Shown piece by piece: positions 5,146 to 5,253 of a DNA stretch of 64,000 bases (its first letter is position 1; every line of letters starts with the position of its first letter). Source of the DNA: a virus. Lineage: Duplodnaviria; Caudoviricetes. The stretch spans positions 132,896 to 196,895 of the IMG/VR virus record IMGVR_UViG_3300037067_013660. One strand, 5' to 3'. The notes below the pieces were generated by a model. It worked only from the letters and a program-made list of their open reading frames with translations, made no database searches and was not told the origin of the DNA. The position numbers and the translations under genes are program-made.

Positions 5146-5253
5146 TGGAGCATGCAGGGTTCGAACCCGCATCTTCCGGTTTCGCCGGACGCTCTTCCAA
5201 GTCGCGAGCCTCGGGTGATCAATCCTCCGACCCGCAACCTGAGCTACTGCCCC
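5146..5253 (-). ncRNA. Atypical tRNA-like RNA (Ala identity, 5-nt anticodon loop, ~40-nt hairpin in D-loop)
   Basis: GGGGCAG-TA-GCTC-[insert]-GAGC-G-TCCGG-CGAAA-CCGGA-AGAT-GCGGG-TTCGAAC-CCTGC-ATGCTCC-A. Confidence 0.7.

Follow-up and report, generated by a model that had tools for sequence, protein, structure and literature searches.

Relation to known tRNA-like RNAs

tRNA-like non-coding RNAs are already known, and the element described here is a variant of such RNAs: an anticodon-less tRNA-like gene of 108 nucleotides (nt) that resides at positions 5146-5253 within a minus-strand tRNA cluster of a virus of the class Caudoviricetes (IMG/VR record IMGVR_UViG_3300037067_013660). The 64 kb analysed here (64,000 nt; hereafter, the window) are the final part, positions 132,896 to 196,895, of this 196,895-bp virus record, for which CheckV estimates a completeness of 56%; unless indicated otherwise, the coordinates are those of the window. 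In the element, remodelling is confined to two places, the anticodon arm and the variable pocket of the D-loop. The reading we favour, with chances that we put at about even, is that the element functions as a phage gene whose RNA mimics the tRNA body without decoding and can probably be charged with alanine.

Among the closest described systems, the species 1 and 2 stable RNAs of phage T4 (rnaC and rnaD; NC_000866 70908-71171) are likewise small non-decoding RNAs that a phage encodes among its tRNA genes and on the same strand as these; the annotation of that record assigns no function to them. The rnaC RNA ends in a T-arm and an acceptor-like stem but has neither a regular D-arm nor the short stub that replaces the anticodon arm in the element, and alanine identity is not evident in it. 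The T4 RNAs show no homology to the class of RNAs delineated below: R1, the covariance model of that class, has no match in rnaD and, in rnaC, aligns with the T-loop alone (13.8 bits), and in Rfam, the T4 RNAs produce only a weak tRNA-Sec-like alignment (17.5 bits vs 47). Bacterial tRNA-Ala and the alanine-identity amber suppressor tRNA of T5-like Aeromonas phages (for example, AhP_Mru1, PV190393.1 41234-41308) share with the element the first four acceptor pairs, G3:U70 among them, as well as A73 and the D-stem, and have a similar T-arm, but these tRNAs decode and possess a 7-nt anticodon loop and an 8-9-nt D-loop, in contrast to the 5-nt loop and the 38-nt D-loop hairpin of the element.

Outside bacteria and their phages, there are tRNA-like processing elements, namely, the plant mitochondrial t-elements (PMC1920247), mascRNA and the tRNA-like RNAs that murine gammaherpesvirus 68 encodes. 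These resemble the element in that they fold like a tRNA, have a degenerate anticodon region, and are recognised by tRNA-processing enzymes but do not decode. However, all these RNAs are eukaryotic or organellar, and those tested were reported not to be aminoacylated, whereas the element retains alanine determinants that are conserved in its closest relative, denoted L307. The tRNA-like domain of transfer-messenger RNA (tmRNA) is similar to the element in having alanine identity via G3:U70, a T-arm and no anticodon, but tmRNA lacks a D-stem and contains a long helix, pseudoknots and a reading frame, whereas the element has an intact D-stem and none of the rest. The archaeal tRNAs with D-loop introns contain, like the element, an insert (28-45 nt) after A14-G15, but these are archaeal rather than phage genes, with a normal anticodon arm, and are spliced to decoding tRNAs. 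In the YrlA-type Y RNAs, which are bound by Ro60/Rsr, the ends lie in the Ro-binding helix rather than in a free acceptor stem. These RNAs also embed a tRNA-like module in a non-coding RNA and are encoded by some large phages (PMC7824862); the element has no match to the Y RNA or YrlA families of Rfam at E-values up to 10, and no TROVE-domain gene was detected in the 56%-complete record.

Structure of the element

The generic tRNA model of Rfam, RF00005, aligned with the element end to end (model positions 1-71), with a score of 35.5 bits, compared to the gathering score of 29, and E-values of 1e-3 across the whole window and 8e-6 locally; in this alignment, the D-loop contains 44 extra nt, and the anticodon loop is 2 nt short. 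The initial annotation had counted a match to a known Rfam family as evidence against its reading. A match was indeed obtained, but with the generic tRNA model only, no other Rfam family being detected, and a generic match is what that reading itself predicts. The minimum free energy fold of the whole element, which does not encode the terminal CCA, reaches -49.2 kcal/mol (z = -2.73), and R1 scores the element at 62.6 bits, the element itself being part of the R1 training set.

Along the minus strand, the 5' strand of the acceptor stem (positions 1-7; 5247-5253) pairs with the 3' strand (positions 66-72; 5147-5153) at six of the seven positions, including G1:C72, G2:C71, G3:U70 and G4:C69, with G7.A66 as the sole mismatch (A66 is window base 5153); the discriminator A73 is at 5146. 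All four pairs of the D-stem form between 5241-5244 and 5191-5194, and the T-arm (5154-5170) consists of five pairs, one of them G.U, and a canonical 7-nt loop. The D-loop encompasses 46 nt, compared to about 7-11 nt in a canonical tRNA. Of these, 38 nt inserted after A14-G15 (5201-5238) are predicted to fold into a hairpin with a free energy of -18.3 kcal/mol (z = -2.76), a value that two of 200 shuffled sequences equalled, and the remaining segment (5195-5200) keeps G18-G19, the residues that dock to the T-loop. The anticodon arm is replaced by a 15-nt stub of five pairs and a 5-nt loop (5175-5189), on which the sequence, the Rfam alignment and the predicted fold agree, and which lacks both U33 and a 7-nt loop. 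By inspection, the core tertiary positions U8, A14, G18-G19, A21, G26, T54, Psi55, C56 and A58 are all kept. Thus, the architecture that the initial annotation had described, with an alanine-type acceptor stem, intact D-stem and T-arm, a shortened anticodon loop and an extended hairpin inside the D-loop, is borne out.

With default settings, ARAGORN does not call the element. An alternative layout, in which the element would be a class II tRNA with the stub as its variable arm and the anticodon arm hidden in the insert, was rejected because no 7-nt loop could be drawn, either by inspection or in the ARAGORN fold. There is no second copy of the insert hairpin in this phage, and the possibility that it is a repeated or mobile element was accordingly dismissed. 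Elsewhere in the window, at 30328-30699, there is a tandem repeat of 5.4 copies of a 69-nt unit (88% matches), each unit containing a near-palindrome that agrees with the 3' side of the element hairpin in 14 of 15 bases; this was the best partial match, and we judged it to be at chance level. We also considered, and rejected, the idea that the hairpin loop resembles a Shine-Dalgarno sequence and acts as a decoy that binds the 3' end of 16S rRNA: the predicted duplex (-14.5 kcal/mol) is reached by 6% of shuffled sequences, and there is no such trend in the class.

Insert-plus-stub elements in phage and cellular genomes

The class was searched for with a pattern in which the same D-arm words are spaced 25-55 nt apart and are followed by a T-loop too near for a normal anticodon arm. 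Matches were detected at 11 viral loci in IMG/VR and at 24 loci in metagenome contigs, and removal of duplicates and a few artefacts left about 22 distinct insert-plus-stub elements. Most of these have all seven acceptor pairs, 11 include an encoded CCA, and the inserts are folded; the anticodon-arm position is occupied by 13-16 nt that typically form a short hairpin. Several of the elements reside in contigs of 170-640 kb, and many belong to tRNA arrays.

There were no matches to this pattern in 185,579 bacterial and archaeal genomes (one per species). A control pattern with the normal anticodon-arm spacing recovered at least 120 loci from the same collection, indicating that the scan works there. 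Inspection of 78 control matches identified 67 as tandem or partial tRNAs, and the genuine cellular tRNAs with D-loop inserts are archaeal (DPANN and Asgard), each with a normal 7-nt anticodon loop. The only cellular example that is not archaeal is a tRNA-Lys(CUU) in a contig from a metagenome-assembled genome of Pirellulales (L076:7283-7377), in which the anticodon arm is normal and the D-loop contains a 45-nt hairpin insert. This contig could belong to a phage and have been mis-binned, or the insert could be a rare bacterial case. Those phage D-loop-insert elements in which the spacing is near normal still have odd anticodon arms, for example, with 6-nt or 9-nt loops; L016 and L030, each with a 7-nt loop, on a 6-pair stem in the case of L016, are partial exceptions. 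Thus, in cells, the inserts accompany working anticodons and are introns, whereas in phages, they accompany disabled anticodons. The recurrence of the insert-plus-stub architecture in phages, together with its absence from the cellular genomes, indicates that it is probably not a product of simple decay. In full-text searches of the literature, we found no account of tRNA look-alikes from phages that have an insert in the D-loop or a stub in place of the anticodon arm.

These comparisons bear on the possibility that the element is an intron-bearing tRNA gene from which the D-loop hairpin is removed, in the manner of the archaeal D-loop introns or the 'enigmatic' introns of Lak megaphages. Archaeal tRNAs do have inserts at the same D-loop position, introns in phage tRNAs have been reported (PMC6784885), and in intron mode, ARAGORN gives a call for the element, a tRNA-Ala(CGC) with a 16-nt intron. 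We rejected this call because, in the corresponding fold, the D-stem is reduced to three pairs and the anticodon stem is mismatched, and we regard the intron explanation as extremely improbable: even with the hairpin removed, a 5-nt loop without an anticodon would be left, the cellular tRNAs with D-loop introns all have a normal anticodon arm, a self-splicing intron could not be as short as 38 nt, and there is no bulge-helix-bulge motif by inspection.

Within two groups of insert-plus-stub elements, the inserts covary. Between L038 and both L044 and L049, two A-U pairs are replaced with G-C, whereas the stub loops vary freely in this group; between L017 and L028, one A-U pair is replaced with G-C and one G-C pair with A-U. 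R1, which was built from 25 elements and run over whole phage records, revealed that, in three phages, the known elements are accompanied by additional long tRNA-like genes. A 416-kb phage contig (L198:1501-1844) and a complete phage genome of 171.7 kb (L210:1501-1819) contain runs of two to three adjacent long tRNA-like genes (100-126 nt), accompanied by tRNAs with extended or shortened anticodon arms; some of these genes have one acceptor stem in common, which suggests families of paralogous remodelled tRNA frames within individual phages. In the phage tRNA arrays L017, L026, L028 and L033, ARAGORN reports two-base or four-base 'anticodons', corresponding to 6-nt or 8-nt loops, beside the D-loop-insert elements.

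Stub-armed elements and the closest relative

The element also fits the definition of a stub-armed class, in which the acceptor stem, D-stem and T-arm are paired, and 13-16 nt, folded into a hairpin of 3-6 pairs, replace the 17-nt anticodon arm. Stub arms combined with a normal D-loop are present at no fewer than 114 viral loci. At least six of the seven acceptor pairs and at least four of the five T-stem pairs are retained in 48 of the 69 distinct stub-arm sequences, and the loops are mostly 3-5 nt long.

The closest relative of the element, L307:992-1061 (IMGVR_UViG_3300028837_003789), belongs to this stub-armed set. It is 70 nt long, scores 54.3 bits with RF00005, is not called by ARAGORN, and has a normal D-loop without an insert and a stub of five pairs with a 3-nt loop. 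The two acceptor stems are identical at all seven positions of the 5' strand and at six of the seven positions of the 3' strand, with G3:U70 and A73 in both, and the T-arms are identical at 16 of 17 positions; this combination of T-arm and acceptor stem was found in no other viral contig. In the stub, by contrast, the 28:42 pair changes from C-G in the element to U-A in L307, and the 29:41 pair from C-G to G-C, whereas 27:43 is changed on one side only (these pairs were compared by eye because MAFFT places the 3' side of the stub one column out of register). No protein similarity is detectable between the 8-kb L307 locus and the 197-kb record. Thus, the acceptor stem and T-arm are kept in sequence and the stub in pairing only, a pattern that, from two sequences, is suggestive of sequence-specific reading of the acceptor, as by alanyl-tRNA synthetase (AlaRS). 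At its own locus, L307:992-1061 is directly preceded by a terminator-like hairpin and followed, after 17 nt, by a tRNA-Met(CAU). A search for further relatives with the stub sequence yielded only chance matches and fragments of tRNA-Ser.

The stub-armed elements are also relevant for a different explanation, namely, that the element is a processing signal or scaffold, in which the tRNA frame only directs the cuts by RNase P and at the 3' end, or yields the hairpin as a stable small RNA, aminoacylation being irrelevant. Processing requires the acceptor stem, T-arm, D-arm and elbow only, which are exactly the parts that are kept, and the CCA encoded in 11 insert-bearing elements suits RNase P recognition as well as charging. 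The inserts are group-specific and kept within groups where the stub loops vary (as in L038/L044/L049), four elements (L003, L006, L009 and L012) are located among protein genes with no tRNA called nearby, and the plant mitochondrial t-elements provide a documented precedent (PMC1920247). Conversely, processing sites are already supplied by real tRNAs 7 nt and about 140 nt from the element; many stub-armed elements have no insert, so that a payload is not the general point; and the comparison with L307, where the acceptor is kept in sequence and the stub covaries, suggests sequence-specific recognition of the acceptor. On balance, we find this explanation, the main rival of our own, unlikely.

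Alanine identity

The acceptor-stem determinants of alanine identity in bacteria are A73, G2:C71, G3:U70 and G4:C69 (PMC9976931), and all four can be read from the sequence of the element; the minor determinant G20 is absent, the residue after G18-G19 being A. Alanine identity is not a general feature of these phage RNAs: the combination of G3:U70 and A73 occurs in three or four of the approximately 25 insert-bearing elements and in four of the 48 stub-armed elements. AlaRS reads the acceptor stem, ignores the anticodon and charges acceptor minihelices. Given that the acceptor determinants of the element are complete and that the acceptor stem is nearly identical in L307, which comes from an unrelated phage, charging of the element with alanine by AlaRS can be reasonably inferred.

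If charged, the RNA might serve as a non-ribosomal alanine carrier, one of the roles envisaged in the initial annotation, which would give its alanine to a transferase involved in cell-wall, lipid or protein modification, the missing anticodon barring it from the ribosome. In favour of this role, AlaRS charges minihelices, and tRNA-dependent transferases read mainly the acceptor end. The full set of acceptor determinants (PMC9976931) and its conservation in L307 are also compatible with this role. However, no transferase is evident among the scanned neighbouring genes, although no search was aimed at Fem-, MprF- or L/F-type transferases; most members of the class lack alanine identity; and the D-loop hairpin is left unexplained. 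On the genes scanned, this proposal has no support, and we deem it very unlikely.

G3:U70, A73 and the lack of an anticodon are also common to the tRNA-like domain of tmRNA, which raises the prospect of a mini-tmRNA, that is, an alanine-charged tRNA-like domain that would enter stalled ribosomes with SmpB. In tmRNA, SmpB occupies the space of the D-stem and anticodon arm, which in the element is filled by the intact D-stem and the stub. ARAGORN makes no tmRNA call, and the only match to a tmRNA family, a partial one to a permuted-tmRNA model, scores 10.7 bits against a threshold of 47 and is noise; furthermore, the element contains no message-like part and no pseudoknots, and there is no SmpB gene in the 56%-complete record. 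The chances that the element is a mini-tmRNA therefore appear to be minimal.

Strain variants and origin

Contigs from three landfill sequencing runs are identical to the window over the parts that they cover. Another landfill metagenome, run X3, contains a strain that is ~95% identical over 4600-5464. In this strain, the 108-nt element differs by a single change, A66 to C (window base 5153), which turns the only acceptor mismatch into a G7-C66 pair, the pair that is also present in L307, and the insert hairpin is unchanged. Across 4963-5341, including the flanking spacer, this is the only difference from the window, whereas neighbouring stretches are 13-20% divergent. Over the whole of 4600-5464, the divergence of the X3 strain is patchy, reaching 13-20% in some stretches of 50-170 nt and being nil in others, coding ones included, which suggests frequent recombination among related phages.

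In T5-like Aeromonas phages, the corresponding slot, with a similar tRNA-Ala(UGC) immediately downstream, is occupied by an amber-suppressor tRNA that has the same alanine-type acceptor. The element probably descended from a duplicate of an alanine-identity tRNA of this sort. This slot also makes plausible a duplicate origin of another kind, in which the element would be merely a decaying copy of tRNA-Ala or of an alanine-identity suppressor tRNA that lost 2 nt from the anticodon loop and acquired a D-loop insertion by chance. The low Rfam score (35.5 bits), the acceptor mismatch, the lack of a default ARAGORN call and the absence of a close homologue with the hairpin are compatible with decay. 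However, all stems and core tertiary positions are intact (the initial annotation had argued against decay, with good reason, from the well-kept stems), and the insert is located in the sole pocket of the D-loop that is naturally variable in length and forms a stable hairpin. Furthermore, the combination recurs in unrelated phages and is missing from cellular genomes, where tRNA pseudogenes should accumulate as well; L307 has the same frame, with compensatory changes in the stub; and the only strain-level change restores a pair. Because the architecture recurs in phages, the L307 stub compensates, and the X3 change repairs the mismatch, the element is probably not a product of plain decay, an explanation that we consider distinctly unlikely.

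The tRNA cluster and its surroundings

Reading along the minus strand, the element is preceded, about 140 nt upstream, by tRNA-Leu(UAA) (5397-5480; ARAGORN and Rfam) and followed by an ordinary tRNA-Ala(UGC) (5066-5139; ARAGORN, and 55.3 bits with Rfam). The gap to the latter is 7 nt by the Rfam coordinates, as given in the initial annotation, and 6 nt by those of ARAGORN. A further tRNA, tRNA-Leu(UAG), is encoded on the same strand at 2382-2462 (ARAGORN and Rfam), and 8-10 additional tRNA genes of this phage are located ~5.5 kb ahead of the start of the window. A simple scan detected no terminator-like sites on the strand of the element within the tRNA cluster, including the interval between tRNA-Leu(UAA) and the element. 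On the plus strand, ARAGORN predicts an 85-nt tRNA-Ala(GGC) at 12747-12831, which has no Rfam tRNA match, overlaps long open frames and is probably a false positive.

Outside the window, in the upstream array of the same phage, there is a second odd tRNA (G000:C1:126696-126770; L195:6696-6770; 35.2 bits with Rfam), in which the anticodon loop comprises 11 nt and the T-stem four pairs, and which ARAGORN in intron mode interprets as tRNA-Arg(CCG) with a 4-nt intron. In the neighbouring tRNA-Asn gene, C33 replaces U33.

The two proteins that flank the element have only strain-level relatives, and one of the relative contigs ends before reaching the element. A nearby VWA-domain protein has thousands of relatives, but among those for which the gene layout or DNA is visible, the tRNA cluster does not adjoin the gene, and two GenBank relatives, Virus Rctr197k and Rhizobium phage RHph_I1_18, encode tRNAs of ordinary length only. 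A PIN-nuclease identity of the downstream gene with a 121-aa product was rejected, with no Pfam or PHROGs matches even at E = 10. The open reading frame adjoining tRNA-Leu(UAG) (1502-2359, minus strand) matches a PHROG annotated as an HNH endonuclease (2.7e-19). No genes for AlaRS, SmpB, the CCA-adding enzyme, RtcB or Ro60 were found in the 56%-complete record. Farther along the phage genome, two full-length HEARO RNAs (RF02033) are present on the minus strand, at 50817-51036 (147.5 bits) and 53598-53812 (149.6 bits). HEARO RNAs are guide-type RNAs associated with mobile elements of the IscB/HNH type.

Proposed mode of action

The initial description of the element as a tRNA-framed RNA that does not decode is supported by the 5-nt loop, which holds no anticodon; codon reading is impossible for an RNA whose anticodon arm is replaced with a 15-nt stub that ends in such a loop. 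RNase P, the 3'-processing enzymes and the CCA-adding enzyme need only parts of the tRNA that are kept in the element. Under our favoured reading of the element as a functional mimic of the tRNA body, it would be transcribed together with the neighbouring tRNAs and excised by the tRNA-processing enzymes, with RNase P acting at the 5' end, followed by 3' trimming and addition of CCA by the host. The product would fold, like a tRNA, into an L, from which the D-loop hairpin would jut out close to the elbow. We further propose that this RNA would then be recognised, and probably charged with alanine, by the host AlaRS, given that it carries the alanine identity determinants of the acceptor stem.

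Once processed, the RNA would occupy a factor that recognises the tRNA body or the acceptor end, the best candidate being a host defence enzyme directed at tRNA, for which the RNA would act as an uncleavable competitor; we offer this part of the model tentatively, as a possibility that is more apt to be wrong than right. The D-loop hairpin would provide a lineage-specific extra contact. Changes in the anticodon loops of phage tRNAs have been interpreted as evasion of tRNA-cleaving defences (PMC10264068). Given this published interpretation and the C33 of its tRNA-Asn, the phage is plainly engaged in a conflict over tRNAs. Defence tRNases that cut the anticodon arm keep emerging, and one was reported to cut phage tRNA-Ala(UGC) well (PMC13056530). 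A still wider generalisation, that large phages encode a phage-only class of aminoacylatable, anticodon-less tRNA mimics that act as uncleavable competitors or inhibitors of tRNA-attacking host enzymes, with the element as its alanine-type member and the hairpin as a second binding surface, seems doubtful to us.

Two of the roles suggested in the initial annotation fare less well. Anticodon nucleases cut a loop that the element lacks, which makes a sacrificial decoy for these enzymes unlikely, although an uncleavable competitor is possible. A decoy for stringent-response sensors is unlikely, too, because activation of RelA requires a codon-matched tRNA in the ribosomal A site.

Several observations weigh against the reading of the element as a functional mimic. 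The choice of a tRNA-directed defence enzyme as the target is purely inferential. The only specific relative beyond strain variants is L307, which has no hairpin, and the covariation that the initial annotation had put forward as a check is seen in the stub, relative to L307, and in the inserts of two other groups, but not in the element's own hairpin. The class patterns fix one D-arm and one T-loop sequence, so that the likeness inside those words is not independent. For stub arms with a normal D-loop, the comparison with cells, where there are no such elements in 807 sampled genomes (~2.4 Gb), is a weak control. The low divergence of the X3 strain at the element may reflect a recently recombined segment rather than selection. 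A partner protein is not evident, the genes adjoining the element being uninformative in Pfam and PHROGs searches, and no partner gene common to elements of different groups was found near them. Finally, among the sequencing runs listed as containing the stretch, none is recorded as RNA.

Implications for phage tRNA genes

Standard tRNA finders miss genes of this kind, or else the genes are dismissed as pseudogenes, and hence they go unannotated. The element and L307 form a simple test pair, given that charging by AlaRS hinges on a single base pair, which can be changed while the fold is preserved. Should the mimic indeed block a tRNA-directed defence, it would represent an RNA-based counter-defence, a strategy for which we found no description in the literature searched. 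Current explanations for the tRNA genes of phages invoke codon supply and evasion of host defences that cleave tRNAs, and both presuppose that the tRNA decodes. Recurrent phage genes that keep the body and the acceptor end of a tRNA but discard the anticodon suggest that the tRNA fold serves infection in a second way, which could consist in processing, in charging or in the blocking of host factors.

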